Part shown: piece after piece, positions 3,809-40,494 of the stretch
How the letters are laid out: each line of letters opens with the position of its first letter
Position numbering within the stretch: the first letter of the stretch is position 1
Source of the DNA: Kiritimatiellia bacterium
GTDB lineage: Bacteria; Verrucomicrobiota; Kiritimatiellia; RFP12; UBA1067
NCBI GenBank assembly: GCA_017403825.1
Contig: JAFRDO010000065.1
Location: forward strand, 6,438 to 70,437
Direction: 5' to 3'
Length of the DNA stretch: 64,000 bases
Translations under genes and position numbers: made by a program
Notes under the pieces: generated by a model
Seen by the model: the letters and a program-made list of their open reading frames with translations, nothing else
The model's database searches: none
Told to the model about the DNA's origin: nothing

Positions 3809-5770
3809 TTATTTATACGTCTGCACGAAACCAGCAGTCTCTTCTACCGCAAGAACCGGCAGAACGGAAGCGCCAAGCCGCAGCATCACGTCCTCATCAG
3901 CCTTTATGTCAAGCGACCAGACTTCAGCCGGCGCCATATTCCGTTCCCCAGTCAGCGTGACCGCCGCCGTCTGGCGCGGCATGGACGCGACAACCGCACC
4001 TGCGGCGTTCAGCATAGATACCGCCGCCGGCTCCTCGGGAGTGACCGCCGCATACACCTTCTTCGCGCCGTCCGGCACAGGGAAATAGAGTCGGCAAGTT
4101 TCGCGGAACAGGTTGAGAGACGTGTCGGCCAGAAGCCCCTGGCCGGGATATGGCGAGCTAACGGACACCGTGTTGCCGCGCGTGTCGATCTCGAACCGGC
4201 GCAGGTTGCGTCCCGCCGTCTTGACCGATGCTTTCTGCACGGCGGCGGTGATGCTGAACGTGCCAAGGTCCGTCCCCATCATGTCCCTCATCTGCACGGG
4301 ACAGTTCAGCTTGCGGTTGCCGACGGTCTTCGCCCTGAAGGTCAGCGTGTACTCGCCTTCCTTCGGCAGATGCTGTAGGAACGTGAACTTTCCCCGGCAC
4401 ATGGGCGTCGCCTTCTTCACCGCAGAATCCGGCGCAATCGGACGCAGCGCCCGATAGTCCACAAATCCGCCGCCGAACGCCTTGCGCAATTCCGGGTTCG
4501 GACGGTTCTTCGCGGCAAGCGCGACAAAGTCAAACGGCGCAGACGCACCGTCGCGCTCGACCGAAAGCGTGCCGCCGACGGACTCGATGCCGACGCCCAC
4601 CGTCCCGGAGAACTCGACCGCCGGCTCCTTGTCCACGACAAGGCGGCAATTCTCGAACGACAGGTTCGCGGCATCGTCTGACAATCCGTTGTTGCTGACC
4701 AGTAGTCCGCTCCATGTTCCGCCGCGCGCGTCAAGCAACGTGTCCTTCACTGCAACTGACGCCGTCTCGCGCGAGACCCCGTTGACGACCATCGCCCGCG
4801 AACGGTTTCCGGCGAACTGGCAGTTCTCAACGCGAATCGCGCCTTTCACTGGCTTCCGCCTGCCGTTGGCGCCCACCGTAATCGCAAGGCCGTTCGCCGC
4901 ATTGCCGCGCGCGCGGCAGTTCCTCAGGGTTACGGAAATCGGCTCCGTCGTCTCGTCCAGACACGTCAGGTGAAACAGAATGCCGCTCGAGGCGTTGCCA
5001 TCGAACTCGCAGTTCTCGACGACGCAGTTGGAGAGGCGGTCAGTCGGCCTGTTCGGCTCGAAGTCGATGCCGCACTGCGGCGGCGTTCCCTTCGTGGCCG
5101 TAAAGCGCGAATCCGCGATGGTGAGATTGTGCGCCCCTGTGATGCTGATGCCCTGTCGGTAGTGGTCGCGGCAGTCCACGCGGCGAATGTCAATGTCCGT
5201 GCTGTTCCGTCCGACGTAGATGCCGTCGCCTCCGGAATAGCGGAACGAGAGATCTGAGACGCGGACATTGGCGCTGTTTATGATATTGAGAGTGTGACGC
5301 CATTCGCTGAAGCAGTATGCCTTGCGGTCGGTATAGGCGTCGCGCTCCATCCGAAGAAGCGCATTCCCCTCTCCGCGCAAAACGACGTTAGAAACGCCGC
5401 GAGCGGTGAACAGGCAGTCGTTCCGACCCTTGTACGCGCCTGTCAGCGCCCGCACCGTCACACCGTCTTCGACGACAACCTCCTGATTGGAGCGAAGGAA
5501 TACCGGCTCGACGATCCAGTCTCCCGACTGCCGGTCGATCACAACTTTCGCCGCGCCGGAGTCAAAAGCCGTCTGAAGGCACTTAGTCGCATTCGTCGCG
5601 TTCCACCCGAACGACGAGGCCTTCACGCCACAGGGAGAACTGGTTTCTCGCCCATTCACTTGTAGCTCTCGCCGCGCAGCACAACTGGCGAGATGTCCGT
5701 TGTTCCGATGACATCCCGCCACCGATATAGCTGCCAAAGACAAAGCAACCACAAGTTTCACCGGCGACAT
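3809..5770 (-). CDS. Lipoprotein with right-handed parallel beta-helix repeats (pectate-lyase fold, GH28/polysaccharide-lyase-like)
   Basis: ATG at 5770 gives MSPVKLVVALSLAAISVAGC, a lipobox. The body has repeated beta-helix signatures ('NCVVENCEFDGNASSGILFH', 'RNCRARGNAANGLAIT', 'ENCQFAGNRSRAMVV'). The track ORF extends to 5881, but that upstream part lacks a signal peptide. Confidence 0.6.
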   Translation of the reverse strand: MSPVKLVVALSLAAISVAGCHRNNGHLASCAARRELQVNGRETSSPCGVKASSFGWNATNATKCLQTAFDSGAAKVVIDRQSGDWIVEPVFLRSNQEVVVEDGVTVRALTGAYKGRNDCLFTARGVSNVVLRGEGNALLRMERDAYTDRKAYCFSEWRHTLNIINSANVRVSDLSFRYSGGDGIYVGRNSTDIDIRRVDCRDHYRQGISITGAHNLTIADSRFTATKGTPPQCGIDFEPNRPTDRLSNCVVENCEFDGNASSGILFHLTCLDETTEPISVTLRNCRARGNAANGLAITVGANGRRKPVKGAIRVENCQFAGNRSRAMVVNGVSRETASVAVKDTLLDARGGTWSGLLVSNNGLSDDAANLSFENCRLVVDKEPAVEFSGTVGVGIESVGGTLSVERDGASAPFDFVALAAKNRPNPELRKAFGGGFVDYRALRPIAPDSAVKKATPMCRGKFTFLQHLPKEGEYTLTFRAKTVGNRKLNCPVQMRDMMGTDLGTFSITAAVQKASVKTAGRNLRRFEIDTRGNTVSVSSPYPGQGLLADTSLNLFRETCRLYFPVPDGAKKVYAAVTPEEPAAVSMLNAAGAVVASMPRQTAAVTLTGERNMAPAEVWSLDIKADEDVMLRLGASVLPVLAVEETAGFVQTYK

Positions 5771-7135: not shown

Positions 7136-7339
7136 TTACCGAACATAGATTACCATGCCGAGAGGAATGGTATCGAGCGATCCATCAGCAGAAACGGCCC
7201 AATGGCCGACCGTAGTATTGATGGCTCCTGCGGAAGACGTCGCCGTTGAATCTGGCAAACGGTTGGTATTGGCGAATGCGGCCAACACCACAAGCATGGC
7301 CGCAACAATGGCAGCCACGCGCAATCCTGATGTTTTCAT
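7136..7339 (-). CDS. Small secreted peptide (67 aa precursor, ~44 aa mature), function unknown
   Basis: ATG at 7339 sits 12 nt downstream of AAAAAGGAGG. Signal peptide MKTSGLRVAAIVAAMLVVLAAFA. The mature part, NTNRLPDSTATSSAGAINTTVGHWAVSADGSLDTIPLGMVIYVR, ends in the same tail motif as the four PATR proteins (see findings). It sits in a 270 bp gap between two genes on the same strand. Confidence 0.45.
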   Translation of the reverse strand: MKTSGLRVAAIVAAMLVVLAAFANTNRLPDSTATSSAGAINTTVGHWAVSADGSLDTIPLGMVIYVR

Positions 7340-7375
7340 GTTCAAGTTAGGCCTCCTTTTTGCTGATGACGATGG

Positions 7376-10117
7376 TTATTCTTTGCAGATCTCAATCTTT
7401 ACTGGCCCAAGCAGCCCGGAATCCAGCAGCTTGTCGTGCTTCGACCAGTGCTTCCAGCTCGTCCACGTCGTCCGCTCGTCCTCCGGCAACATGTCCTCGC
7501 CGACGAGCCGATTCGGCCAACGGTTGGTGACGCGTACCTCTATGTCGAACACGACAGGCTTCTGCGCGCGTTTCGGGGCATCGGTGATGTCGATCCTGAA
7601 CGGTGGCTTCCAGAGCGTACGAAACTCCTTGCCATTGACGGTGACGGTGGCAAAGTCCCTCACGTCACCAAGGTCAAGTACGATACGGCTCTTCGGCTTA
7701 AGCGATGGCGACTTCTCCAGTTCCATCATGTCGGACACGTCGATTTTCCTGGAATAGTACGCCGATCCGGAGAAATACTTAAGGTCGCGGATTCCCGACT
7801 CGTTCCACTTCGCTCCCGGCGTCAGTTCCATGGGCAGAGGTTCACGCCCCGCAGGCGACTCGAAGCGTACCTTCCATGCACCTTCCACAGGAATCGTCCG
7901 TACAGTCTTAAATGCCTGTTGCAAAGGCAGGTCGCCGCCGCCGTTGCGCAGCACAACGAACGCCGACCCGGCGACAGGCAGATCGACCGACACCACAGTG
8001 CGGCCATTTTCATAGCGCCAGTTCGCGGCCGTGACCATCTCGCCGGATTCGGGGTACCATATCTCCGGCGTACGTCCAGTGACGGCGCAGGACTTCTCTA
8101 TCGTGACGGGATAGTGGTTCGTTGATGTCACGAAGTACCAGTCCGCCAGCGCGTTGCGCCTGTGGCAAACGTCGTCCTTGACCTTGGTCCCCTCCTGCAG
8201 CAAATATTGGCAACGCGTCTGGTAGCGCACGAATTCCGCGCCCTCGCGCCACCACGTCTGGGTCCTGTCGAAGTGCATGCCCCACGGCCCCATCGTCATG
8301 CCGGGATATTTCGGCTTTGCCCACGGCTGGTGCGTGAAGCGATGGAAGAAGATGCGGTTGACGCCGAGCTCGTATGCATGGTCGCACTGGCACTTGATAG
8401 AATACGGATACACCTGCCAGCGCCCGTCACTCGCGCTCGCAGTGAACGCCTCCGCCGCAACGATGCCGTGGCCCCATGCGTCGGCGGCCGCGACCACCCC
8501 TTCCACGTTGCCGAGGTGTGGACCTGTCGAAAGCCAGAAACGGTCCGTGTTCGGACGGCTCCAGAACTCGCACTGCGGCACATCGCAGAAACGCGCGTAG
8601 GTGAAATCGTCGGAAGGGCCGTTGCCATAAGGCTCCAGATAGAACAGCAGCCCGTATTCGTGCGACTTGCGCAGCATGGTGCCTGCGTAGTTCTCGGCGA
8701 ACATGTCGTTGATCACCTTGCGATAGTCGGCGAGGAATTTCTCGGATTTGTCGACGGAACCGACGATGCGCCCGGTGAACGTAGGCAGGTACGGGACAAT
8801 GGAATAGCCCATGCGGCTTTCGAACTCCTTCTCGAAACCCTGCGTCCAGTTCTGGCATTCCGCCTCGAAGCTGTCGTTGAGCACCATCTTCACGGACGCG
8901 CCGTCAGGGCCGAGCAGACGCATCAGCCTACCTACATACGCCTCGAAGTGGCGTTCCACGGCAGGCGTGGAAAGCTTGTCTACCTCAAGTCCCCGGCCTG
9001 CGGCCGTACCAGACGAGCTTACGAGCTTGCCGTTCGCGTGGTAGCCGACGCGGATGATGGTCCATTCGCCATCCGGCACGTCCCAGACGAGCCGCCCCGA
9101 TGCGTCCATTCTGTCGGTCAGGACGACCGTCTCTGCCGGATCGACCACGCCCCGCCTCGCCGTCGTGGCAAGCGACTTCGCGCAAGGCATCTTGAAGCGA
9201 AGTTTCTTTCCGTCGATGTCCTCCAAACGCGGTTCCGACTCGAGATGGAATTCTTCCATCTTTATCTTCCAGTCGCAGCACGTCGTGAAGCGCAACGCCT
9301 TGAACGTCACCGGCTTCTCGAACGTATGTCGCCGCAGGTCACGGAACTGCGCATTGAAGTACGACACGTGGAACGACATTGTCTCAAGGTGGCGGAATTC
9401 CTTGCCGTCGTCTGACACCTCTATCTCCGCGATGCCCGGCAGGTTCCAGTGCCACGGGAACGAGATGCGCCACGAGAAACCCGCCGCAGTCACCTTCTCC
9501 GGCGCAGTCACGGTGGTGACGTTTCCCTTTGTCGCCCTCACCGTGAATTCCGCTTCGTCGTGCCTGGACATCGCATCCGGCACGTTCTCGACCGTCGTCA
9601 CATCCGCTTGTATGCGACGGTCGATCCCCTTCACCGCCAATACCGCTATGTCGGCGTAGAAGCCGTTGTCGTCCATACGCCGGGGCAGAACAGCATCGAA
9701 ACGCGACGGTCCCTTCACGGGCGTCTCGGTGCAGGTCGTATACTTCATCGATTCGGCAGGCTTGACCCACGGCCCGCCCGAATTGGCCCAGCCGGTACCG
9801 TTCGCGACGCCCAGCACAAGCCCGAGCCGCGTCGCCTCCTTCGCCGCATGTCGTATGCAGTCAAAATACTCGCGATTCCCGAAAGTGACCGGCCCCTTGG
9901 GGATGTGGCAGCTTGCGTCAAACATCATGGCGCCCGCGAGTCCGTTCCCGGCAAGCGCTTCGAGGTCTGCGGTAATGCCTTCCTTCGTCACGTTGCCGTT
10001 CATCCAGTGCCACCACACGTATGGAGCATACCGACGTGGCGGATTAGCGAAGTCGTCCGGCGAAATGTCGGCTGAGGACATCGTGGAAAGCGCAACCAGC
10101 GCAATGACCACAGACAT
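7376..10117 (-). CDS. Secreted glycoside hydrolase, GH106-like (alpha-L-rhamnosidase family candidate), with a C-terminal GH2-type sugar-binding jelly-roll domain
   Basis: ATG at 10117 gives MSVVIALVALSTMSSA, a signal peptide. The N-terminal 'PPRRYAPYVWWHWMNGNVTKEGITADLEALAGNGLAG' is the P..RP...WW.W..G signature I associate with GH106/GHL families. The C-terminal 'YFSGSAYYSRKIDV...TVNGKEFRTLWKPPFRIDIT' resembles the GH2 sugar-binding domain. The exact family is uncertain. Confidence 0.6.
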   Translation of the reverse strand: MSVVIALVALSTMSSADISPDDFANPPRRYAPYVWWHWMNGNVTKEGITADLEALAGNGLAGAMMFDASCHIPKGPVTFGNREYFDCIRHAAKEATRLGLVLGVANGTGWANSGGPWVKPAESMKYTTCTETPVKGPSRFDAVLPRRMDDNGFYADIAVLAVKGIDRRIQADVTTVENVPDAMSRHDEAEFTVRATKGNVTTVTAPEKVTAAGFSWRISFPWHWNLPGIAEIEVSDDGKEFRHLETMSFHVSYFNAQFRDLRRHTFEKPVTFKALRFTTCCDWKIKMEEFHLESEPRLEDIDGKKLRFKMPCAKSLATTARRGVVDPAETVVLTDRMDASGRLVWDVPDGEWTIIRVGYHANGKLVSSSGTAAGRGLEVDKLSTPAVERHFEAYVGRLMRLLGPDGASVKMVLNDSFEAECQNWTQGFEKEFESRMGYSIVPYLPTFTGRIVGSVDKSEKFLADYRKVINDMFAENYAGTMLRKSHEYGLLFYLEPYGNGPSDDFTYARFCDVPQCEFWSRPNTDRFWLSTGPHLGNVEGVVAAADAWGHGIVAAEAFTASASDGRWQVYPYSIKCQCDHAYELGVNRIFFHRFTHQPWAKPKYPGMTMGPWGMHFDRTQTWWREGAEFVRYQTRCQYLLQEGTKVKDDVCHRRNALADWYFVTSTNHYPVTIEKSCAVTGRTPEIWYPESGEMVTAANWRYENGRTVVSVDLPVAGSAFVVLRNGGGDLPLQQAFKTVRTIPVEGAWKVRFESPAGREPLPMELTPGAKWNESGIRDLKYFSGSAYYSRKIDVSDMMELEKSPSLKPKSRIVLDLGDVRDFATVTVNGKEFRTLWKPPFRIDITDAPKRAQKPVVFDIEVRVTNRWPNRLVGEDMLPEDERTTWTSWKHWSKHDKLLDSGLLGPVKIEICKE

Positions 10118-10175
10118 CCTCTTGTAGAGTAGAGACCCACGCCTCGGCGTTGCCGCCGGTGCGACTTCCCCCTCA

Positions 10176-10213
<38 letters not shown>

Positions 10214-10379
10214 CCGTAGAGCTGCGTTCGTCATAGCTTGGCTTTTCCTTGATTGGCACTATGGCATATAAGGTTGCAGGCATTATACATCATTCCCGCC
10301 CCTCGCCACAATTATACCAAAGTATAATCGGCAGGCGTTGACACCGCTTTGCACATTTAATATCATATTGAAAACAATC

Positions 10380-12416
10380 ATGTTGAAAATGACGTTACGC
10401 GAAAAGACAAAGCGGATTCTGCTTGCCACGATTTTGGCGGCGGCGACCCCAGCTTTTGCCGTGGGCGCGGACGCAATGGCGTCTTTAAGGCCTAAGGCCG
10501 TGGAACATGTCGGCGACTTCTGCCACACGGGCACCGTCACCATGGTATGCCAGAACCTGGACTTCTCTCTCGCGGAGCGGAATGGGCGTCACCATTTTCT
10601 TGTCGTGCGGAAGCAATTTGGAATTCGCGTCGGCGAAATCATCGTCGCAGCCGGCGAATGCGTCCGCTGCGACAACGGCTCCGTGCTTAAAATAGCACGC
10701 CGCGTTCTTCATCTGGGGCAGGAGTTGCTGCCGTCACCGGAGAAAGTGTCGATCGCCGAACTAACCAAAAAGGATTTCCTATACAAAATGGTGACGACGG
10801 AAGGCACGCTCGTCCTCGCACGACGCGACGAAATAGACACCGCCTACATCCAGATGCTTGTCAAGGACGGCGCGTCCATCGTTAATGCGGCTTTTATGGC
10901 AAGCACCAACCGGACGATTGACGCAATTTCGCTTCTGGGGGCGCGCGTTCGGCTTACCGGGGTCCTGATGCAAGGCTACGGTGCCCGCAGGAACATATCC
11001 AACTATCTCTCTCTCGACCCTCCCGGAGGCTTTGAGGTGGTGACGCCCCCGCCTGCCGACACTTTTAAGGTACCGGAGCTCAACTTAGATTCCCAATATA
11101 CGCCAGAGGAAATCGTGCAAATGGATCCCCGACGCTTCAACGGCGTGGTAATGGCGACCTGGGGCGGCAACCAGCTGATGCTGGCAGGAAAAGGCAGCCG
11201 ATGCGTAAGAGCAACGCTTGCCCGCGACGGCGAACTCCCTGTCGCTGGCGACTATGTGGCCGTCGTCGGCTTCCCGGATACGGATCTCTATGGCATCAAC
11301 CTTGTCTACGCGCAATGCAGGCCTTTGGCGGACGGAAAGGATTTCGGATTCGATCCGAAGCCGGTAGAAGTCACGCTACGGCAACTTCTGACTGACGGAC
11401 ACGGCAGGCCTAGAATCAACGGCTACAGCCACGGACGCCTGCTGCGGCTCAGGGGAACGGTCCTTGACGTGCAGCCGTCGCTTGCCCTATTCTCGATAAA
11501 CGATGACGGGCTGACCTTGCCGGTAGATTGCTCGTCCTCGCCAAACGTCATTCCGCGCCTGGAAGCCAACTCCAGGATAGAGGTCGTCGCTCTCGCCATC
11601 ACGGAAACGGACAGCTGGCGCGAATGCATCGCCTTGCCGCAGACGCGCGGCCTCAGGCTTGTGCTGCGCTCCGCCTCAGACCTCGAGGTATTGGCGTTCC
11701 CGCCATGGTGGACTCCCGCCAGGTTGACGGCGACCGTCATATCCCTTCTCGTGATCATCGTGCTGATCATCGCAGCCAACCGCATCATCAACAGGATAAT
11801 GATGCGCCGCAAGGTGTCCGAGCGTACGCGCCTTGCAGTGGAGCTTCACGACTCGCTGTCCCAGACCCTCGCCGGCGTCGCCTGCCAGATTTCCGCAGGA
11901 CACGATGCCATAGACGATGACCCGAAGTCTGCCAAGGAACTTCTGGGCACGGCCGAACGGATGCTGGAGTCCAGCAGGACCGAGCTCAAGAACTGCCTGT
12001 TCGACCTCAGGAACGACACGGTGGACGACCCGGACTTCACACGGGCCATCTCAAAGACGCTCACCGGGTTCAGGACCGAGGCGAACATCTCGATTCGGTT
12101 CAACGTCGCGCGGTCTCTGCTGACCGACTCGACGGCGCACGCGATTCTCTGCATAGTCAGGGAACTCGTCGCTAACGCCGTCAGGCACGGCGCAGCGACA
12201 CGCATCAGGATCGCAGGCGTCGCCGCCGACAAGCGGCTCCGGTTTTCCGTACACGACAACGGCCGCGGATTCGATACCGAGCGCCGCCCCGGGCCACGCG
12301 AAGGACACTTCGGGTTGGCAAGCATCCGCGAGCGGCTAGCCGACATCAAAGGCTCCTTCAAGATAACATCAAGGGCAGGGGATACCCGCGCCACCGTGAA
12401 CATGACATTGCCATGA
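10380..12416 (+). CDS. Sensor histidine kinase (HisKA_3 + HATPase_c) with a large periplasmic sensor domain
   Basis: ATG at 10380 gives MLKMTLREKTKRILLATILAAATPAFA, a signal peptide. A ~430 aa periplasmic region is followed by a TM segment (ATVISLLVIIVLIIAANRII), the H-box 'RTRLAVELHDSLSQTLAGV' and the ATPase motif 'ELVANAVRHGAA...FSVHDNGRGFD'. Confidence 0.85.
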   Translation: MLKMTLREKTKRILLATILAAATPAFAVGADAMASLRPKAVEHVGDFCHTGTVTMVCQNLDFSLAERNGRHHFLVVRKQFGIRVGEIIVAAGECVRCDNGSVLKIARRVLHLGQELLPSPEKVSIAELTKKDFLYKMVTTEGTLVLARRDEIDTAYIQMLVKDGASIVNAAFMASTNRTIDAISLLGARVRLTGVLMQGYGARRNISNYLSLDPPGGFEVVTPPPADTFKVPELNLDSQYTPEEIVQMDPRRFNGVVMATWGGNQLMLAGKGSRCVRATLARDGELPVAGDYVAVVGFPDTDLYGINLVYAQCRPLADGKDFGFDPKPVEVTLRQLLTDGHGRPRINGYSHGRLLRLRGTVLDVQPSLALFSINDDGLTLPVDCSSSPNVIPRLEANSRIEVVALAITETDSWRECIALPQTRGLRLVLRSASDLEVLAFPPWWTPARLTATVISLLVIIVLIIAANRIINRIMMRRKVSERTRLAVELHDSLSQTLAGVACQISAGHDAIDDDPKSAKELLGTAERMLESSRTELKNCLFDLRNDTVDDPDFTRAISKTLTGFRTEANISIRFNVARSLLTDSTAHAILCIVRELVANAVRHGAATRIRIAGVAADKRLRFSVHDNGRGFDTERRPGPREGHFGLASIRERLADIKGSFKITSRAGDTRATVNMTLP

Positions 12417-13060
12417 ACAAAATCCGCATACTCCTTGCCGACGACCATTCCATAATGCGCGTCGGGCTTGCATCGCTCCTTTCGCGTGAAAAGGACATGA
12501 CCGTCGTGGGAGAGGCCGAAACGGGCGAAGAGGCCGTCGCAAAGGCGCGCGAACTCAAGCCTGACATCGTCGTGATGGACCTCATGATGCCGACACTTTC
12601 AGGTGCCGAAGCCACGCGGCAGATCACATCCAACGCATCGGCGGGAGATTCGGCAGAGGGAGAGACTCTGCCGCGCGTACTCGTATTCACGTCATACGGA
12701 ACGTCCGCTGACCTGGCGGACGCCGTCAAGAACGGCGCTTCGGGGGTCCTGCTAAAGAACGCCCCGACGCGCGACCTTCCGCAAGCGATCCGGAGCGTCT
12801 TTGCGGGCGAGAAGGTGCTTTCAAAGGAGATTACGGCGCTTGTGAACGAAGAATCGTCTACGCCCCATCTCACAGACCGCCAGCTGCTGCAGCTTGAACT
12901 TGCCGCCCGCGGGTTCACCAACCAGGAAATCGCCAACAGGCTGAACGTCTCGCTGATCACGGTCAAGAAACAGTTCTCCGACATCTTCGCACGGCTCAAC
13001 GTCTCAAACAGGTCGGAGGCCATCGGTCTCGCACTGCAACGCCACATCATCAAGATGTAA
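12413..13060 (+). CDS. Response regulator, NarL/FixJ family (REC + LuxR HTH)
   Basis: The start overlaps the kinase stop by 4 nt (ATGA). The REC domain shows 'ILLADDHSIMRVGLASLL ... IVVMDLMMP'. The LuxR HTH shows 'LTDRQLLQLELAARGFTNQEIANRLNVSLITVKKQ'. Confidence 0.9.
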   Translation: MNKIRILLADDHSIMRVGLASLLSREKDMTVVGEAETGEEAVAKARELKPDIVVMDLMMPTLSGAEATRQITSNASAGDSAEGETLPRVLVFTSYGTSADLADAVKNGASGVLLKNAPTRDLPQAIRSVFAGEKVLSKEITALVNEESSTPHLTDRQLLQLELAARGFTNQEIANRLNVSLITVKKQFSDIFARLNVSNRSEAIGLALQRHIIKM

Positions 13061-27891: not shown

Positions 27892-27967
27892 GGGGAAGTA
27901 GCTCAGTTGGTAGAGCATCACGTTCGCAACGTGGGGGTCGGGAGTTCGAATCTCCTCTTCTCCACCA
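27892..27967 (+). tRNA. tRNA-Ala (anticodon CGC), with encoded CCA
   Basis: GGGGAAGTAGCTCAGTTGGTAGAGCATCACGTTCGCAACGTGGGGGTCGGGAGTTCGAATCTCCTCTTCTCCACCA. The acceptor stem has the G3:U70 alanine identity pair. The anticodon loop is TTCGCAA (CGC). The T-arm is GGGAG/TTCGAAT/CTCCT. Confidence 0.85.
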
Positions 27968-28288: not shown

Positions 28289-29626
28289 ATGCAAAGAGTT
28301 GCTTTCAATGAAATTGAGGCTTGGAACAAGCGAAAAAACCGCAAGCCGCTCATATTGATGGGCGCACGCCAAGTCGGCAAGACGTGGCTCATGGACGAAT
28401 TTGCCCGATCGGTCTATTCGGGTGATTCCGTTTCGGTGAACTTTATGGAGGACGATGCGATTCGCGAGAATTTCGAGACGGTGAAGCTTGATCCGAAAAC
28501 GCTTGTTTCGCTCATCCAGGCAAGAAGCGGACGAAGGATTGTACCCGGGAAGACACTTCTCGTCCTGGACGAGATACAGGAATCGCCCAGAGCATTGACC
28601 TCGCTCAAGTTCTTCAACGAGAAGATGCCGGAGTTGGCGATCATCGCCGCAGGGTCTCTCCTTGGTCTCAGCCTTCGCAGAAAGCACGGCACGAAGGAGC
28701 GAGAGTCAAAAGGTTCCTTTCCCGTCGGAAAAGTCGATTTCATAGACGTTCGGCCGATGACGTTCTCAGAGTATCTTTTGGCAAGAGGCGAATCGGTGAA
28801 GTCCGACGAGCTTGCCACCGGGAACTGGGAGATCCTCAACCTTATCCACGATGAAATGGTTAGACACCTCAAGGATTATCTGTTTGTCGGCGGAATGCCT
28901 GACGCAGTTAGGACTTTTGTCGCAAACGGTGACTATCTTGAGACACGCCGAACGCAGAAATCCATTCTGAAGGCATATGACAAGGATTTCGTCAAACACG
29001 CCGAGCCTTCGCTCCTCCCCCGCATCCGTCTTCTCTGGAACAACGTCTCGGCACAGCTTGGGAAACCAAACAAGAAGTTCATATACAAAGCGATGAAGGA
29101 AGGTGCGCGCGGGCGAAGCTATGAGGACGCCTTGCAGTGGCTGGACGACGCAGGCATGGTTCATCAGGTGTTCCGTGCGGATCCGCCTCGTATGCCGCTC
29201 AAGTCTTACGAGGATTTTTCCGCGTTCAAGTTGTACATGCATGACGTGGGGCTTCTTGGTGCGATGAGTGGACTTCCGGCATCGGCGCTTCTCGAACTAA
29301 ACTCGATATTTACAAATTTCAAAGGCGCCTTGACGGAACAGTACGTGCTCCAAGAATTGCTTGCGGCAGGGGTGTCTCCGTCGTACTGGGCGGCGGAACG
29401 CGGTGACGCAGAGGTGGATTTTATCGTGCAGGGGTCCAAGGCCGTATTCCCCGTAGAAGTCAAGGCCGAGCGCAATCTCAAGGCGAAAAGCCTGAAGACA
29501 TATCGTGAATTCTTCAAGCCACCGGTCTGCTATCGAACATCGCTTTCTGAATATGCCGCAGGGCGATTGACACGCGACATTCCGCTCTATGCCGTCGCCC
29601 GCATCGCCGAGGAAGTGCGCAAATGA
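28289..29626 (+). CDS. AAA+ ATPase of the DUF4143 family ('ATP-binding protein')
   Basis: The Walker A 'ILMGARQVGKTWL' is followed by the long C-terminal region typical of DUF4143 proteins. It has its own promoter (TATAAT at ~28264) and RBS GGAGG. Confidence 0.75.
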   Translation: MQRVAFNEIEAWNKRKNRKPLILMGARQVGKTWLMDEFARSVYSGDSVSVNFMEDDAIRENFETVKLDPKTLVSLIQARSGRRIVPGKTLLVLDEIQESPRALTSLKFFNEKMPELAIIAAGSLLGLSLRRKHGTKERESKGSFPVGKVDFIDVRPMTFSEYLLARGESVKSDELATGNWEILNLIHDEMVRHLKDYLFVGGMPDAVRTFVANGDYLETRRTQKSILKAYDKDFVKHAEPSLLPRIRLLWNNVSAQLGKPNKKFIYKAMKEGARGRSYEDALQWLDDAGMVHQVFRADPPRMPLKSYEDFSAFKLYMHDVGLLGAMSGLPASALLELNSIFTNFKGALTEQYVLQELLAAGVSPSYWAAERGDAEVDFIVQGSKAVFPVEVKAERNLKAKSLKTYREFFKPPVCYRTSLSEYAAGRLTRDIPLYAVARIAEEVRK

Positions 29627-29650: not shown

Positions 29651-30097
29651 ATGGAGAAGTTCGAGGTGGTCGTGATGTGCGGGATTCCCGGAAGCGGCAA
29701 GACGACGTTTTGCCGCGAGCGGTTGTTTCCGCAGTATCTCTACATTTCGCTCGACCGGCTCAGGTCGCGGTCGGCGGAGGCGGAGCTTTTCGCATTTGCG
29801 CTGCGCCGCAGAAAGAGTTGCGTCATCGACAACACTAACATCAACGGACACGAGAGGACTCGTTACGTCCCGGCCGCCAAGAAAGCAGGCGCGAGCGTTG
29901 TCGCATACTGGTTCGATCCAGACGTCAGGGCGTGCAGGGCAAGGAACGCGAGCCGGACTGGGCGCGAGCGCGTGCCTGACTTCGTAATAGGGACCAAGGC
30001 GGCCCGCTTTGCCCCGCCGAACAAGGCGGAAGGGTTCGACGACATCCGCAAGGTGTCCATAGACGGCGACGGTTTCAAGGTGGAGGAGGGAATATGA
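29651..30097 (+). CDS. P-loop polynucleotide 5'-kinase-like protein (T4 Pnk kinase-domain-like / AAA_33)
   Basis: 'VVMCGIPGSGKTTFCRE' aligns to T4 Pnk 'TIGCPGSGKSTWARE'. 'VIDNTNINGHER' aligns to 'IISDTNLNPERR'. 'CRARNASRTGRERVPDFVI' aligns to 'VKRNSKRGTKAVPIDVL'. It overlaps the next gene by 4 nt. Confidence 0.65.
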   Translation: MEKFEVVVMCGIPGSGKTTFCRERLFPQYLYISLDRLRSRSAEAELFAFALRRRKSCVIDNTNINGHERTRYVPAAKKAGASVVAYWFDPDVRACRARNASRTGRERVPDFVIGTKAARFAPPNKAEGFDDIRKVSIDGDGFKVEEGI

Positions 30098-30834
30098 GAA
30101 AGAATGGTCTTGGCGACCGAATGAAAGAGTACGAGCGTGCGAGCGACGTGAAACTAGTCCGCCGGCTGCCGATGATCGTTCGGCTTGACGGCAAGGCGTT
30201 TCATTCATGGACGAAGAAAACGGGATGCGTCCGCCCGTTCGACCACACGTTCATCGAAATGATGGCGGGGCTGGCGCAGTACCTCTGCGAGAACATCGGC
30301 GGCGCGGAACTGGCCTACGGGCAGTCCGACGAGATATCAATTCTCGTGCGGGACGACCAGAACCTCGACACCGACGCGTGGTTCGACAAGCGGTTGCAGA
30401 AGGTCGTTTCCATCGTGGCATCGATGGCAACGTATTGGTTCAACGCGAACAACGCCTTCGAGAAAAAGCTCCCCGCGTTCTTCGATGCGAGGGCATTCAT
30501 ACTGCCTGAACATGAGGTCAAAAATTACTTCATCTGGCGGCAAGAGGATGCCACGACGAACAGTCTCTCTATGCTGGCCCAGAGCCTGTACCGACATGGG
30601 GAGTTGCAGCACAAGAAGTGGACAGAGCTGCAGGAAATGTGCTGGCGGAAGGATTGCAACTGGAACAACCTCGATTCGGTCGAGAAGCGGGGTTTCTGTG
30701 TCTATCGCCAAGAGGTGGTCGTAGAAGGACGACAGGGGCCTGTCAAGCGGATGAAGTTCCTCGTGGACCGCGCCATCCCGATCTTCACAAGCTCGGATTC
30801 CGCCGGGTGGTGGTCTCGGTTCCTGAAGGCGTAA
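30094..30834 (+). CDS. Thg1-like protein (tRNA-His guanylyltransferase family; 3'-5' nucleotidyltransferase)
   Basis: 'MKEYERASDVKLVRRLPMIVRLDGKAFHSWTK' matches the Thg1 N-terminal signature (fe....l.p...ivvRiDGr.FHkF). It is 246 aa, typical of bacterial TLPs. Confidence 0.8.
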   Translation: MRKNGLGDRMKEYERASDVKLVRRLPMIVRLDGKAFHSWTKKTGCVRPFDHTFIEMMAGLAQYLCENIGGAELAYGQSDEISILVRDDQNLDTDAWFDKRLQKVVSIVASMATYWFNANNAFEKKLPAFFDARAFILPEHEVKNYFIWRQEDATTNSLSMLAQSLYRHGELQHKKWTELQEMCWRKDCNWNNLDSVEKRGFCVYRQEVVVEGRQGPVKRMKFLVDRAIPIFTSSDSAGWWSRFLKA

Positions 30835-34961: not shown

Positions 34962-37844
34962 TCACCGAACGGAGTATGTCATTCCGTAAACATGGGGAGC
35001 GAGGTAGCCGTCGGAATCAAGAATCACGCGGCGGCCGTCCCAGCGAATGCGATTGACCTGCTGCGGCGTGAGCCCGTTCCCGTCCGTGCCGAAACGGAGC
35101 GTGCGCGCCGCCGAAGGCCCCGTGATGGTCAGGCGACGGCTGCCCCAGTCCTGCGCGGAAGAATCGCCGAACGAAAGTTCCGAGCCCTCAGCCACGGCAA
35201 TCGTGCTGTTGGAGATAACGGAAAGCGTTCCCGCCACATTCGTGCTTGCGCCCGCATCGAACGTACCGCCCGCGAGCGTCAAGTTGATGCCCGCGTTGAA
35301 CGCGCCGTTCGTGCCGAGCAGGATCGCGCCCTCGACGATGGAGACGCTGCCGGCATAGCTGTTCGCCGCGCCGAGACGCACAGTACCAGCGCCCGTCTTC
35401 TCGATTGGCCGCCCGGCGAACGCTCCGCCGCTTCCGACATAGTTCGCAATCGCGCCGTTCAGGTAGAGATCGGTGCCTTCGGCAACGTCCGCGACATTAA
35501 GCTTCCACAGGTTGTCGTAACCGACCAAAGCAGATGAGTAGTTACCGCGCAGAATAGAGAACGGAAGATTTACGACCGCAGCGGCCGTTCCCGCCACCGT
35601 GATGCCAGAAACGGCCATGTCGCCCTCATAGCCGGAACGGAATTCATCGCCATTCACGGTCGCGCCGTCCGTCAGCGTAAGGCGCGTCAAATAGCCATAG
35701 TCCTGCCCATTGTCGCCGTTACCACCCGCCATGAACACCTCCGAACCTCCCGACACGTTGACGGTCGTCTGCGCACCATTCGAGCGGAAGCGTCCGAAGC
35801 ACAGGTAGCTGTCCTCCGTGACGTTGACCGTAGATTTGCCCAACACACCGACTGACGACTCGGGGCGGTTAACATCGATGAAGAGCTTGGCGCGGCTCTT
35901 CAGTGTCGTCTTGCACGACACATCACGTGGCAATGCACCGACCGCCGTAAGCCCCAGCAAGGCACCATCGACCACCGTGCCACCATAGTATGTATTCGCA
36001 GCACCAAAAGTGACCGCCGTGTCTGTTTCGTTCGTGACTGTGACAGTAAATTCGCTGCATGTATAGCCATTCGGCAAAGTTCCGTTCTCAAAATCGCACC
36101 CCCAATAGGCAAAACCCGTTCGATAGGAGCTACCCACGCGTCTGCATGTGATGTCTGCACCATTCTGTGCAAACTCGTACACGGCGCATTTCACATAGTT
36201 GTTTCTCTTATCATCTTTTATCTGGAACTGACAACGGACAGACTGCCCGTTGTTGCGGAAAAAGAAGGTGCCCGGCGGTTCATCGATATCTCTGCTCATG
36301 CTGCCACTTCCCTTGAATGTAGCCGTTGCAGCAACCCAGCCGGATATGTCGGCATTCTGAAAAAGGACACCGCCTGATTCTGGCAATTTTGCCGAATATG
36401 TGAGTGTGCGCCCCGAAGGATCGACCGTACCCTTAATGACAACGCTGCCAGCCGATGAAGCTCCAGACGAATCAGAGATGTCGCCGTTCAGAACCTGCCG
36501 CGTATGGGCAATTTCAAGGGTGCTGCGATAAATAACGATGGGGCTGCTGAATGTTCCGCCGCCAAGCGTTCCGCCCGTGACGGCGAGAGTGGACATGTTG
36601 TCGGCGCGCACCATTCCGGTGAAGGTGTTGTAGGCGGCCAGCTCCACGCGCGGGCAGAGATGCAAATCGCACATGCCGTAGACCGCAGTGTTGCCGTCGA
36701 ACAGACGCATGTTCGTCGCCTTCGGGTGTGTGCGGAAATCCACGCCGCGGCAATCGACATACTGGTCGTTGATGTAGGCCGCACCCGTCACCCTGCCGCA
36801 GATGTCCGGTCCGACCTGCGTCAGCTCCAGGAAAATGCACTTGGTGTAGCCGCCGCCGTACCACTGCATCTGCGCTGTGAGCGTAGAGCCGTTGTTTTCA
36901 AGGAAATACGATTGCTGCGGGGTGGAATCCCAGCCGACGGAATTGCCGCTCGCCGTGGAGATCAGGTTGCTGATGCCAGCCAAGGTGGCGTTTTGGAACA
37001 GCACCTGCGAGGCAGCCGGAAGCACGGTATGCGCAGCCAAACCATATTGATAAATGCAATTGGCGACGCGGAAGCCGTTTGCGCCGGCAAGCGGACATTC
37101 GAATCTGGCCAGACCGGAATACATGATGACTTCGGATGCCCCAACCATCGTGATCGTTCCACCCGTGAACGTGACAGGCCAGCCCTTCATCGTGAAGTGG
37201 CTCGCCGTGATGCCGGAAGCCTCAACATTGACGGTCGTCGCGACAGCGTTCGTGAACACCGCCCGAGCACCGGGAACCCAAGCCGTCGCCTCGCCGCTCT
37301 CCGTAAGCCAGTTCGCCGTTGTGCCGTCCCATGCATCGCCTCTCGCGCCGTTCCAGTAGAGCTTCGTGCGCAGGAAGGAGTCGTCCTCGTCGCTCAACGT
37401 CACGTCGCGGATCTTGTAGCTGCCGTTTGACCAGCCAGAAGACATGTCTGAACCTTCATGGTTGTGGTACTGGTCGTTGAAGTACCTTGCGAAGGCTTTG
37501 CCCTTGATGTCATCGCCGTCCTGCGTGAGCTGAAGCACCACGCCCTTGGTGTAGTCGCCCAGATACACCTGAAACTGCACCGTCAGAGTCGAACCGTCGT
37601 TGGAATAGTGGTACGCCGTGGCGGGTGCGCTCTTGCCGGCTGTTCCCATTGAATCCCCGGTGACCCACGCTGAAACGGACTTTACGTCGGCAAGACTCAC
37701 GCCCGTGAACATCACGGTGTCCGTCGCCGGAACGGTACCGGAGTAGGTTCCGAGCGTTGCCGCCGGAGCAACTGGCGAACATGTCGCGGCGATGCCGGCA
37801 ATCGCAGCCGCCAGAATGGTTCCATGTGGCTTTTTCATTTCCAT
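34962..37844 (-). CDS. Large secreted protein built from autotransporter-associated beta-strand (PATR) repeats; the C-terminus ends ...DSDGYLAPHVYGMTYSVR
   Basis: Signal peptide MEMKKPHGTILAAAIAGIAATCSP. PATR-type repeats, for example 'GAGTVRLGAANSYAGSVSIVEGAILLGTNGAFNAGINLTLAGGTF'. Confidence 0.7.
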   Translation of the reverse strand: MEMKKPHGTILAAAIAGIAATCSPVAPAATLGTYSGTVPATDTVMFTGVSLADVKSVSAWVTGDSMGTAGKSAPATAYHYSNDGSTLTVQFQVYLGDYTKGVVLQLTQDGDDIKGKAFARYFNDQYHNHEGSDMSSGWSNGSYKIRDVTLSDEDDSFLRTKLYWNGARGDAWDGTTANWLTESGEATAWVPGARAVFTNAVATTVNVEASGITASHFTMKGWPVTFTGGTITMVGASEVIMYSGLARFECPLAGANGFRVANCIYQYGLAAHTVLPAASQVLFQNATLAGISNLISTASGNSVGWDSTPQQSYFLENNGSTLTAQMQWYGGGYTKCIFLELTQVGPDICGRVTGAAYINDQYVDCRGVDFRTHPKATNMRLFDGNTAVYGMCDLHLCPRVELAAYNTFTGMVRADNMSTLAVTGGTLGGGTFSSPIVIYRSTLEIAHTRQVLNGDISDSSGASSAGSVVIKGTVDPSGRTLTYSAKLPESGGVLFQNADISGWVAATATFKGSGSMSRDIDEPPGTFFFRNNGQSVRCQFQIKDDKRNNYVKCAVYEFAQNGADITCRRVGSSYRTGFAYWGCDFENGTLPNGYTCSEFTVTVTNETDTAVTFGAANTYYGGTVVDGALLGLTAVGALPRDVSCKTTLKSRAKLFIDVNRPESSVGVLGKSTVNVTEDSYLCFGRFRSNGAQTTVNVSGGSEVFMAGGNGDNGQDYGYLTRLTLTDGATVNGDEFRSGYEGDMAVSGITVAGTAAAVVNLPFSILRGNYSSALVGYDNLWKLNVADVAEGTDLYLNGAIANYVGSGGAFAGRPIEKTGAGTVRLGAANSYAGSVSIVEGAILLGTNGAFNAGINLTLAGGTFDAGASTNVAGTLSVISNSTIAVAEGSELSFGDSSAQDWGSRRLTITGPSAARTLRFGTDGNGLTPQQVNRIRWDGRRVILDSDGYLAPHVYGMTYSVR

Positions 37845-37984
37845 TGCTCCTTTTCACTTTTCAGACACGTCACTTGCCCGCTCCATCAAAACGCCTTGAA
37901 TTATACCATAAAATCCGTATTCCCGCGCAGGACAATCCGGCTTCCGGCCCGCTTGCAGGACCTTGAAAGACATCCTTATGAATC

Positions 37985-38095
37985 AATTGCAAAACCTCCC
38001 CGTGTGTATTTTTCAACCACGGAAATCACGGAATAACACGGAAAACAAGCAATTTCGATTCCGTGTATTCTGTGTATTCCGTGGTTTTGCAATTG
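37985..38095. repeat. ~110 bp complex palindromic element between two genes on the same strand
   Basis: The outer 13-bp perfect arms are CAATTGCAAAACC and GGTTTTGCAATTG. The inner left arm has 3x CACGGAA at a 10-bp period. The inner right arm has TTCCGTG / TTCTGTG / TTCCGTG at a 10-bp period. Confidence 0.7.
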
Positions 38096-38109
38096 CCTCT
38101 TAATATAAG

Positions 38110-40494
38110 TTACTTCCTTGCCCACCCCTTAGGCAACTTCACATCAACCTTCAAGCCATCGCCGGTCCTGCGCCACTTCACAACCGCAACTTCGTCTCGT
38201 GACAACGGCAGCGTCCCCTCGCACCACTCAAGCGGAATGTCCGCCGCCGGACTGACGCGGACGACCTTCGCCTGCCTGTCGATCTCGCGCACCCCGAGAA
38301 CGTCTCGGAAAAGATATTCGCTTGCGATCGAGGCGAAGCCATGGCAGCAGCTGCAATTCCCCTTCGTGTCAAGATGTTCCCACAAAGTCCCCGTTTGATC
38401 TGCCATCGTCAGGAACCAGTCCCGCGTTTCGTCGAGAATCTGCCTCGAGCGCCCTGCGCGCGCCAGAAGCTCAAGCCTCTCGCAGGTGCCGAAGATGAAA
38501 TTCGCAGGCCATATGCGCTTGTGGAGTCCTTTAGCAACGCGGTCCGGACCGAACTCGTCAAGCATGCGTTTCCACAGCGCCGAATGGCTCTCCGGCGTCA
38601 CCGTGTTGAAGAAGAATGCGCAATATTGGCATGTTTCGGTGCACTCGCCGGACAGCTTCAGCGTTCCGTCCGGCTGCCTGACCGCGTTGTCGCAGAACCA
38701 TTCGCCGTTCCAGCTCTGGCGAACCACTTCCGCCCGAACCGCCCGCGCCTCAGCCGCCAGCTCCGGCATCTGATACAGCTTCGCGCAGGCCTCCAGCATC
38801 CGCGCATACATCATGTTTGACGGATAGTTCACGTCCTGGACGAGTTCGTTGGCCTTCGACCATTCCACGAACACCCAACCGGGGAGCTTCTCAAGAAGAC
38901 CGTCGGCGTTCTTGAACTTCCCGAGGAAACGCACAATGCCGAGAACCGCAGGCCGGCACTTTTCCGCAAATTTCCGGTCGCCATAGCGGGCGACGTGCTC
39001 TTCCAGCTGCATGACCGTCCACATCATGTAGTTGGGAATGAAGTTGTCCCAGAATATCCCGCCGGGATAAAGGGCCGGAATCGCGCCATCCATGCTGACG
39101 CCCTTCGAATCGTAGTGGGACCAGTCGAATCCGTCCGCCAGCAGGAAGTTCGAGAGGAACGTCTTCTCCACGGAGCCGTCTCCGGTCAGCCATGAGGACG
39201 CACGCCCCGTAAAGAACGTGTCGCCGGACCAATAAGCGCGTTCCCGCGTCGGGCAATCGGTGAACCCGTCTACCGCGTTCGCCCTGTACGATTCCCTCGC
39301 CGCCCGGAAGATGCGCTCAAGAGCCGGATCGGAAGCACGGAACGACGCGCGGTCAGCAAGCGGCGACACGTAAGTTCTCACCCACAGCGAATCGACGGCG
39401 GCCTTGCCTTCAAGCACGGCAACGTCTATGTACTTGGCCGCATATGGCTCAAACGTCTCAAGCTCATATTCTCCCGCCGATGCGATGCGCCACTCCGCGA
39501 CCGCCGCGCAGTCAAGGCGGGAGAAATAATTCAGAATGCCGTCCTTCCCAAGTATCTCGTCCCACGAAATGACGATGCGGCACGGTCCGTCCGTCCGCAC
39601 CTTCAGTCCGATAAACCCGGAGACGTTGCGGTCGCCCTCGAACGTGGCGGACTCGCCTGATGCAAGCGTTCCTGCATCGCCGCCGATGCATGACCTTGCG
39701 AAGCCCTGCAACTCGTAGTAGGGGTTCGTCTCCAGCTCGTCGAGCGGGAACCGGGTGTGCATCGGATCGTCGCTGGGATCGATGAAACCCAAGCGATAAA
39801 TCTTGCGTGACGGGTCTTTCGCGAGACGTTCCTTTCGGATCGGGCGAAACGACCTGTTCACGGCGAAATCAGGGTAGGGGAGCGGCCTCGGCTCGTATCT
39901 CTTCGTCGGCTGCACCGCCAGCCTGGGCGGCGATCCGGCCGCAGCGCCGACACGCCATGCATCGATGAACGTGCGTTGGCCAGAGAAGCGCGGCGCCTTG
40001 CATATGCGCCCTGCATCAAAAGCCTCGAAGCCGCCGCATGCTCCTGTCGCGGCGGCGACTTTTCCGCCGACCAGCAACTCCGCCTGCATAAACGAAGGCT
40101 GATTGATGAAATAGTAGCAGTTGCAGCAGTACCCTGCGGCCTCGACTTCAAGCACGTTGTCTCCCGCCTTGGCGTCAAGTTTCCACTCGTCAATGCGGAA
40201 GACACCCTCTGGTCCCCGGACGGGGCCAAAGCCGACGAAGCGGCCGTTCAGCCGCACGCGATAGTCGTAGGCGGCGGTCACGCGCAGGACCGCGGCGCCT
40301 AAATCGCCGTTGAAACGGCTGCGTATCGCACAGAAGGAGTTTGTCGCCCGCTCCTCGCCCGCTATCCACACCGGCTTTGCTTCGGCAAAAGATCCGACGG
40401 CTGAACCCGGCTCGGCGACACATGCAGCCGACATGCAGACAAGCCCCGCCGAGACGAACGCCGCACTTGCGGCCAAAAAATCTTTCCGCGTCAT
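38110..40494 (-). CDS. Tat/Sec-secreted GH78-family glycoside hydrolase (alpha-L-rhamnosidase-like)
   Basis: The ATG at 40494 gives MTRKDFLAASAAFVSAGLVCMSAACVA (the track start at 40500 is TTG). It has the rhamnosidase N-domain and 'FTDCPTRERAYWSGDTFFTG', matching the GH78 'DCPtRERlgWtGD' motif. Confidence 0.7.
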   Translation of the reverse strand: MTRKDFLAASAAFVSAGLVCMSAACVAEPGSAVGSFAEAKPVWIAGEERATNSFCAIRSRFNGDLGAAVLRVTAAYDYRVRLNGRFVGFGPVRGPEGVFRIDEWKLDAKAGDNVLEVEAAGYCCNCYYFINQPSFMQAELLVGGKVAAATGACGGFEAFDAGRICKAPRFSGQRTFIDAWRVGAAAGSPPRLAVQPTKRYEPRPLPYPDFAVNRSFRPIRKERLAKDPSRKIYRLGFIDPSDDPMHTRFPLDELETNPYYELQGFARSCIGGDAGTLASGESATFEGDRNVSGFIGLKVRTDGPCRIVISWDEILGKDGILNYFSRLDCAAVAEWRIASAGEYELETFEPYAAKYIDVAVLEGKAAVDSLWVRTYVSPLADRASFRASDPALERIFRAARESYRANAVDGFTDCPTRERAYWSGDTFFTGRASSWLTGDGSVEKTFLSNFLLADGFDWSHYDSKGVSMDGAIPALYPGGIFWDNFIPNYMMWTVMQLEEHVARYGDRKFAEKCRPAVLGIVRFLGKFKNADGLLEKLPGWVFVEWSKANELVQDVNYPSNMMYARMLEACAKLYQMPELAAEARAVRAEVVRQSWNGEWFCDNAVRQPDGTLKLSGECTETCQYCAFFFNTVTPESHSALWKRMLDEFGPDRVAKGLHKRIWPANFIFGTCERLELLARAGRSRQILDETRDWFLTMADQTGTLWEHLDTKGNCSCCHGFASIASEYLFRDVLGVREIDRQAKVVRVSPAADIPLEWCEGTLPLSRDEVAVVKWRRTGDGLKVDVKLPKGWARK

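Follow-up and report, generated by a model that had tools for sequence, protein, structure and literature searches.

An intergenic palindrome in a Kiritimatiellia genome, probably a gene-less doublet of a cross-phylum heptamer-module family linked to GxxExxY nuclease genes

In a 64,000-nucleotide (nt) stretch of a Kiritimatiellia bacterium genome (GenBank assembly GCA_017403825.1, contig JAFRDO010000065.1, positions 6,438 to 70,437; hereafter, the window), the space between two minus-strand genes harbors a nested palindrome, which we confirmed as a real feature spanning positions 37984-38095. Its inner part consists of two inverted arms, each carrying three heptamers of the CACGGAA type, and the palindrome probably represents an orphan doublet, devoid of a gene, from a widespread module family linked to the GxxExxY nucleases. 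The palindrome belongs to this family, which is spread across phyla and associated with GxxExxY genes, and it is present in some close relatives of its host and absent from others. In the gene-carrying form, two inverted modules bracket almost exactly a GxxExxY/PDDEXK_3 gene encoding ~125 amino acids (aa). No published description of an association between such arms and a gene was found in the searched literature on the heptamers, on GxxExxY/PF13366, or on the 23S rRNA intervening-sequence (IVS) proteins that are considered below.

The module arms of the palindrome are regular without being strictly periodic (table 1). CACGGAA starts at positions 38018, 38027, and 38037 in arm 1, and arm 2 holds TTCCGTG at 38059, TTCTGTG at 38068, and TTCCGTG at 38077, the one change in this middle heptamer being uncompensated on arm 1. 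The periods are consequently 9, 10, 9, and 9 base pairs (bp), so that the 10-bp, helical-turn phasing described in the initial annotation does not hold, and its uniform three-nucleotide spacers are replaced by N2 and N3 on one arm and by N2 and N2 on the other. The 13-bp outer inverted repeat described there is indeed present, although it does not enclose the inner arms symmetrically: ~21 nt (37997-38017) separate its left half from the first heptamer. Read on the minus strand, GAAAAATACACACGGGGA from this stretch prolongs the GTT that ends arm 2 into a GTTGAAAAA flank, which also follows the arm in the Kiritimatiellae contig L593. The left outer repeat probably belongs to a distinct small palindrome, or else to an extension specific to this lineage, with the core element lying inside. 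In other family members, the palindrome reaches 1-8 bp (mostly 2-5) past the heptamers, and 8 of 78 doublets (~10%), including that of the window, lie inside a larger unrelated palindrome, compared with 2.3% in the control. Five of the 15 CACGGAA matches of the window fall within 66 bp, and the pattern CGTG-N5-6-CGTG-N5-6-CGTGG, expected 0.02 times per window, was observed once, at the element; the clustering of heptamers at this site is far beyond chance. The element folds to -50 kcal/mol as RNA (z = -6.4) and to -29.5 kcal/mol as DNA (z = -7.4). Rfam searches at the gathering threshold and at permissive E-values assigned the element to no family, returning only spurious sub-threshold microRNA matches, and there was likewise no Rfam match at the modules of 13 other loci.

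A search for further copies, which had been proposed as the means of telling a locus-specific operator from a dispersed repeat, located the CACGGAA module at hundreds of unrelated loci and thus revealed that it is not locus-specific. Scanning a genome collection for CACGGAA-N2-3-CACGGAA-N2-3-CACGGAA returned at least 120 stretches, the bacterial ones mostly from the Planctomycetes-Verrucomicrobia-Chlamydiae (PVC) group, Gamma-, Beta-, and Deltaproteobacteria, Acidobacteriota, Gemmatimonadota, Bacteroidota, and Nitrospirota, accompanied by a few archaeal assemblies; viral contigs yielded 109 stretches with the module. As a control, two shuffled heptamers were scanned in the viral collection, giving 54 and 99 stretches. 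These were perfect period-9, coding-like tandem repeats with inverted partners in 0 of 44 and 0 of 75 cases and, since such repeats are common, the naive chance estimate of about one match is too low. The CACGGAA sites are set apart from the controls by variable spacers, by the C that over 90% of them carry at position -1, and by their inverted partners.

The consensus obtained from 170-319 sites reads TT-R-M-C, CACGGAA-N-A, CACGGAA-N-A, CACGGAA-R, which corresponds to a module of ~30 bp composed of a TTRMC flank followed by three 9-10-bp units of the form (A/C)CACG(G)AAN. Position -1 is C in 289 of the 319 sites, the spacer is N-A, and a partner array of at least two heptamers was found downstream of 119. 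A module can stand alone, cluster with others of the same orientation, or pair with an inverted one; among the matches listed, an inverted partner lies within 200 nt at 78 of 158 genomic and 32 of 157 viral sites. Among pairs closer than 200 nt, polarity is fixed: 103 are inward, a CACGGAA arm being followed by a TTCCGTG arm, and eight are outward, so that the C-CACGGAA ends face out. The window copy displays the same attributes, with three units per arm at 9-10 bp, C at -1, AAC...GTT edges, and inward polarity. CACGAAT defines an equally abundant sister family, and modules built on CACGAAT, CACGAAA, CACGGAT, CGCGAAT, and other variants stand beside CACGGAA ones. Only 4 of 56 pairs occupy divergent intergenic regions, and 52 of the 56 are downstream of at least one gene. 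According to gene calls that are crude in the compared loci (longest open reading frame plus a heuristic on GC at third codon positions), the outer arm end lies ~25-40 nt from a gene boundary and the inner end 65-130 nt from the next one; the window element, also extragenic, is 14 nt from its nearest boundary, against family medians of ~24 nt.

To seek a recurrent neighbor gene, we clustered the proteins encoded in 229 module-bearing loci. Only one small family that crosses phyla, GxxExxY/PDDEXK_3, proved to be bracketed directly by arms (examples being L118, L102, and L075), the other recurrent neighbor clusters consisting only of phage structural genes and an ABC-F ATPase, and the genes found between outward-facing arms were ordinary housekeeping genes. 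The GxxExxY product matches TIGR04256 (E = 1.5e-44) and PF13366 (E = 1.8e-44), and its catalytic residues are kept, E79 and K81 without exception and D69 in at least 90%. The association was also recovered in the reverse direction, independently of the motif, by gathering GxxExxY genes from metagenomes and viral contigs through protein similarity alone. Among the 84 genes with sufficient flanks, a strict triple-heptamer arm was located upstream of 37 and downstream of 44, so that 59 (70%) have at least one arm and 22 have both, compared with 14 of 670 (2.1%) and 18 of 670 (2.7%) control windows from the same loci. The commonest layout is arm-gene-arm (20 cases), and the positioning is close, the upstream arm ending at a median of 6 nt from the start codon and the downstream arm beginning at a median of 10 nt past the stop; in L118, these distances shrink to 1 nt on the ATG side and 2 nt on the stop side. 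Protein identity is 0.611 for genes with the same heptamer type against 0.573, a difference reached by 0 of 1000 permutations; heptamer type modestly tracks GxxExxY protein similarity, a relationship that shared ancestry could also explain.

The GxxExxY family is large, with at least 7,984 clusters matching PF13366/TIGR04256 at E <= 1e-10, and its Kiritimatiellae member is 80% identical to one from Desulfamplus, an identity across phyla which indicates that the family moves between them. Nonetheless, the function of PF13366 was listed as unknown in a 2012 superfamily survey (PMC3424549), and the name GxxExxY is mentioned in few papers of the literature searched. No sequence-related solved structure was found for the protein, its AlphaFold model is poor (predicted local distance difference test score, pLDDT, 58.5), and Foldseek with this model returned only non-significant matches of the PD-(D/E)XK type (such as Hjc, RecU, AddAB, and Cas4), from which we draw no structural conclusion. 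GxxExxY genes are often found in restriction-modification operons (L118, L514, L519, and L593), either just upstream of an HsdM-like gene (identified by eye) or among SNF2, DUF4391, and methylase genes. In L118, the gene upstream appears to read through the arm, which would then encode its C-terminal tail.

The closest counterpart of the window element in a gene-carrying context is the contig L593, where a GxxExxY gene has an arm of the CACGGAA type on one side and a TTCGGTG/TTCAGTG/TTCCGTG arm on the other. This gene-carrying copy is flanked by four gene-less doublets, with CACGGAA arms and the same flank as in the window, and their loops keep the first ~10 nt and the last ~13 nt of the gene region. 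Arms of a different kind bracket the genes of the four-helix-bundle 23S_rRNA_IVP family (PF05635), with GGATGAA/GGCGGAA upstream and TTCATCC/TTCCGCC downstream, arranged as contiguous, inverted heptamers (L593, 3640-4120; L513, ~900-1320; L594-L609, gene at 401-778 or 401-769). This second pattern comes from only two independent contexts, most examples belonging to one conserved operon (SNF2 helicase, 23S_rRNA_IVP, DUF4391, and methylase). Judged from these sequences, the arm type seems to go with the gene family, which would fit arms that are part of the element and not of the host.

Comparison with relatives of the window organism revealed how recently the element may have arrived. The element is identical in L232 and L233, strains with 96% protein identity. 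In L237 (87% identity), gene order is unchanged and the TGGTATAAT box is retained upstream of the downstream gene, but the element is absent. L234-L236 (86%, Kiritimatiellae) have neither the element nor the downstream gene, and their two rhamnosidase genes stand side by side. This pattern of presence and absence characterizes the element as a recent, dispensable addition to the intergenic region. Further relatives of the gene coding for the glycoside hydrolase family 78 (GH78)-like protein on the upstream side (P0007 and P0008) occupy other contexts and provided no empty site.

On the explanation that we favor, the nuclease would travel with its arms between phyla, might recognize the heptamer arrays, and could thereby promote the spread or maintenance of the arms together with its own gene, possibly through cutting at palindrome centers or hairpin loops. 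At the window locus, the element would provide the upstream transcript with a strong hairpin at its 3' end (-50 kcal/mol), before the promoter of the downstream gene; the local effect of this copy is probably incidental, and the copy probably sits inside a small unrelated palindrome. With less assurance, at a level somewhat short of even, we propose that GxxExxY nucleases and triple-heptamer arms form a previously unrecognized class of selfish or mobile elements across phyla and phages, in which the nuclease would recognize 9-bp arrays, drive insertion or gene conversion at palindrome centers, and leave thousands of orphan arms and doublets behind, the 23S rRNA IVS protein family being a parallel system with GGATGAA arms.

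Several observations weigh against this explanation. A GxxExxY gene is present in only 5 of the ~230 CACGGAA-anchored loci, which is near the expectation from gene density; the case rests on the exact positioning and on the reverse test. No GxxExxY homolog exists anywhere in the window, and a partner nuclease acting from elsewhere in the genome has to be assumed. Neither a target-site duplication nor a clean junction between empty and filled sites was obtained from the listed pairs or from the comparison with L237; by eye, no direct repeats were seen at the edges of 39 listed pairs, including that of the window. Dispersed copies within one genome share their 28-40-nt arms only and not their loops, although local tandem copies share loops too (L593, L138, L513, and L016), and remnants of GxxExxY genes are absent from 83 mid-size loops. 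A model in which the whole element transposes and then loses its gene fits only some cases, such as L593. In that contig, moreover, each heptamer of the downstream arm mismatches its upstream partner, which would be odd for a hairpin or for a single recognition sequence. Finally, GxxExxY genes are nearly lacking in phage contigs, in which single arms sharing one orientation are numerous.

The arms might instead act mainly at the RNA level, with RNase III cutting the long stem and so freeing the selfish gene, or an empty loop, from the host message, and with gene-less copies serving as processing or stabilizing hairpins at 3' ends. An RNA-level role would be compatible with the nuclease-linked explanation and is a live alternative; as the main function of the arms, we regard it as unlikely. 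In its favor, a strong stem is predicted, few pairs lie in divergent intergenic regions (as described above), the arm-gene-arm layout mirrors the Coxiella IVS carrying the S23p gene (PMC4990558), and the IVS-type genes of PF05635 exhibit the same design with other arms. However, deviant heptamers across 172 arm pairs comprise 117 one-sided changes against 5 compensated ones, from which it follows that the sequence and not the helix is conserved, and this argues against RNA being the principal constraint. The heptamers are conserved across phyla, whereas the leading spacer base (N) is variable and frequently lacks a pairing partner; single arms and pairs are about equally frequent; one mismatch per heptamer occurs in the L593 arms; and the orientation of arms relative to transcription varies between phage groups. 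Conservation of sequence in place of pairing would also suit modules that serve a regulator or nucleoid protein of host or phage as arrays of binding sites, near which GxxExxY genes merely land or by which they are regulated, the window copy then being a regulatory site. Three direct repeats suit a multimeric binder, and phages carry same-orientation single arms 10-50 nt upstream of start codons. We nevertheless hold this reading to be quite improbable, because no regulator gene recurs near the modules, an identical heptamer over many phyla and a few archaeal assemblies would require one universally conserved binder, modules have no fixed orientation with respect to genes, the promoter of the downstream gene has the window element on its upstream side and persists in L237, where that element is missing, and the reading does not explain why GxxExxY genes are so exactly bracketed.

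Readings confined to the window locus fare worse. The terminator-like hairpin of the initial annotation would imply an intrinsic terminator evolved in place for the GH78-like gene, for which the very stable hairpin and its position 14 nt past the stop codon speak; we find this very improbable, given that the transcribed strand continues after the hairpin with ATTCATAAGG and has no uridine tract, that this hairpin, like the family consensus, is flanked by TT...AA, that the same sequence recurs at hundreds of unrelated loci and as single arms, and that close relatives lack the element. A consensus scan of 37700-38300 detected neither a promoter nor a terminator-like site. Scarcely credible is a locus-specific operator through which a multimeric, response-regulator-like protein would control the surface-protein gene. 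The LuxR-type regulator put forward for this role (12413-13060, +) is a genuine NarL/LuxR-type protein with REC and GerE domains, forming a two-component pair with a HisKA_3 kinase (10338-12416, +) 25 kb from the palindrome, and NarL-type proteins bind heptamers. No connection between this regulator and the palindrome was found, though: the period is 9 bp and not the 10-11 bp of helical phasing, the site is found at hundreds of loci, the window holds a single copy with none near the regulator's own operon, and L237 keeps the TGGTATAAT promoter without the element. Other known classes of sites were considered and rejected, namely CsrA sites (GGA is absent from the variant heptamers, and modules are found in either orientation), sigma-54 or extracytoplasmic function (ECF) promoters (their spacing is not that of the motif), DnaA boxes and MraZ repeats (sequence or period is unsuitable, and such sites are not dispersed), Rho utilization sites (the modules show no dependence on orientation), attP arm sites and partition centromeres (a single replicon holds too many modules), and sequencing adaptors (modules also occur in cultured isolates).

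Some contigs exhibit module arrangements that deserve mention in their own right. The Verrucomicrobia-type phage contigs L136, L147, L151, L162, and L213 carry 4-8 single intergenic arms, all pointing the same way, at 10-50 nt from start codons and have no GxxExxY gene, and the intergenic regions of L213 also hold purine-rich short tandem repeats (CGCAGAT/CGCGGAT, GAGAATG, and GTGTTGAGA). In L022, an Opitutaceae assembly with 10 modules in 8 kb, positions 7221-7614 hold a 116-bp higher-order tandem repeat in which modules of three TTCCGTG alternate with modules of three ATTCGCG. In the gammaproteobacterial L001 (6600-6760) and L039 (~4500-4600), CACGGAA modules alternate with GTAG-tagged hairpins of the repetitive extragenic palindrome (REP) type, GTAGGGTGCGTTTTACGCACC, so that two repeat systems share the same intergenic spaces.

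Table 1. Coordinates, within the window, of the palindrome components and of the flanking genes
Feature	Coordinates	Strand	Basis or remark
Outer inverted repeat, left half, CAATTGCAAAACC	37984..37996	no strand	sequence
Asymmetric spacer, no right-hand counterpart; minus strand reads GAAAAATACACACGGGGA	37997..38014		sequence
Arm 1: AAC + CACGGAA-AT-CACGGAA-TAA-CACGGAA	38015..38043		triple-heptamer module with the family's C at -1 and AAC flank
Loop, 15 nt, AACAAGCAATTTCGA	38044..38058		position of the GxxExxY gene in gene-carrying family members
Arm 2: TTCCGTG-TA-TTCTGTG-TA-TTCCGTG + GTT	38059..38086		inverted module
Outer inverted repeat, right half, GGTTTTGCAATTG	38083..38095		shares one G with the last heptamer
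Upstream GH78-like gene, 794 aa, Bac_rhamnosid6H domain	38110..40494	-	stop codon 14 nt from element
Downstream gene, 958 aa	34962..37838	-	PATR repeat scoring below the Pfam cut-off
Extended -10 box of downstream gene, TGGTATAAT	37900..37908	-	read by eye; conserved in L237

The genes flanking the palindrome correspond in part to their initial description as two surface-protein operon genes: only the downstream one looks like a surface protein, judging from its PATR repeat below the Pfam cut-off, and the upstream one has a Bac_rhamnosid6H domain. The distances also had to be corrected, as the stop codon of the GH78-like gene is closer to the element than the 20 nt given earlier, and the next gene starts 140-146 nt away instead of ~100 nt, its start being 37838 or 37844. 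A protein identical to the GH78-like one is encoded on a 166,782-bp ruminant-gut metagenome scaffold (XIEF21-1_SAMN15829913_METAG-scaffold_84), and its closest named relative comes from a Kiritimatiellae assembly. The TGGTATAAT box was not called by the two-hexamer consensus scan; its retention in the element-less L237 places the promoter of the downstream gene outside the element. The wider region (31034-62867) is a dense minus-strand glycoside-hydrolase locus with several GH78-like and GH78 rhamnosidase-family genes, with GH39 and metallophosphatase genes, and, further left, with a GH106 rhamnosidase, a gene content that agrees with a ruminant-gut member of the Kiritimatiellae that degrades polysaccharides. 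Rfam also detected a group II intron domain V/VI match at 10124-10212 on the minus strand (51.4 bits against a gathering score of 40), overlapping the GH106 rhamnosidase open reading frame (7376-10234, -) at its predicted 5' end; no reverse transcriptase was found among the scanned open reading frames adjoining it, the neighbor being the HisKA_3 kinase. A tRNA gene (27892-27964) adjoins an island reaching to 30834 and comprising AAA_14/DUF4143 (28289-29626), AAA_33 (annotated on L230), and Thg1-like (30094-30834) genes; with a GC content of 0.535 against ~0.60, this island could be an element integrated at the tRNA.

If the favored explanation holds, it would supply the first genomic context for the large GxxExxY family, as the exact bracketing points to a candidate DNA substrate and a likely selfish lifestyle. 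It would also account for recurrent cross-phylum intergenic palindromes that could otherwise be misread as operators or terminators. The palindrome of the window is unsuitable for inferring regulation of the rhamnosidase or surface-protein genes.

Among known systems, integron attC sites are likewise imperfect palindromes between co-directional genes, and many module copies have AAC...GTT edges. The taxonomic range of attC sites appears to overlap that of the modules. Nevertheless, the likeness ends at the AAC/GTT edges: no structure of R''/L''-L'/R' boxes with a RYYYAAC...GTTRRRY core was noted (the boxes were not formally modeled), many copies have GCC...GGC edges, no integrase is nearby and no recombinase recurs near the modules, and the gene lies mostly inside the module palindrome instead of beside it. 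PD-(D/E)XK homing endonucleases exist, and a free-standing or intron-borne homing endonuclease gene would offer a comparable small nuclease gene between conserved flanks that may provide a recognition site and repair homology, the gene-less sites then being empty targets; here, however, there is no intron or intein, and the targets would be intergenic repeats. Miniature inverted-repeat transposable elements (MITEs), offered as an option by the initial annotation, share the terminal inverted arms and the excess of gene-less over gene-carrying copies, and the gene-less loops of L593 resemble internal deletions of the gene-carrying form. The element is a dispersed repeat that resembles REP-type units more than a classical MITE: no target-site duplication was seen, no DDE transposase is involved, its dispersed copies share arms and not interiors, and single arms are common. 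The Coxiella 23S rRNA IVS with its S23p gene (PF05635) places a small selfish gene in the loop of a long inverted-repeat stem (PMC4990558), whereas the module element lies outside rRNA and combines another gene family with another arm sequence. The TAACTGA heptamers of Beggiatoaceae, Cyanobacteria, and Bacteroidetes resemble the modules in occurring intergenically in 2-6 copies near start codons, and their patchy cross-phylum distribution suggests horizontal transfer with no known mechanism; they differ in motif, no gene was reported to go with them, and these direct repeats hardly ever have an inverted counterpart (one "indirect repeat"; PMC4679880).

The closest known analog is the system formed by REPs, their inverted doublets (REPINs), and the REP-associated tyrosine transposases (RAYTs), which the element appears to resemble in its workings without being a member. 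As in REP/REPIN populations, extragenic units of ~30 nt occur singly, as inverted doublets of fixed polarity, and in clusters (PMC3733652), mostly between co-directional or convergent genes and with no target-site duplication seen, and several sequence families can co-occur in one genome. As in REP-RAYT loci, a dedicated enzyme gene lies between inverted units (PMC3733652). A REP unit, however, is a small palindrome of 20-40 nt with a GTAG/CGTC tag (PMC3733652), whereas the module described here consists of three direct 9-bp repeats without a tag; and the RAYT is an HUH/Y1 transposase, whereas the bracketed gene here encodes a PF13366 nuclease of the PD-(D/E)XK type that is multi-copy and 80% identical across phyla. 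The modules and their GxxExxY genes would thus add a second repeat-enzyme pairing of the REP-RAYT type, with a different chemistry.

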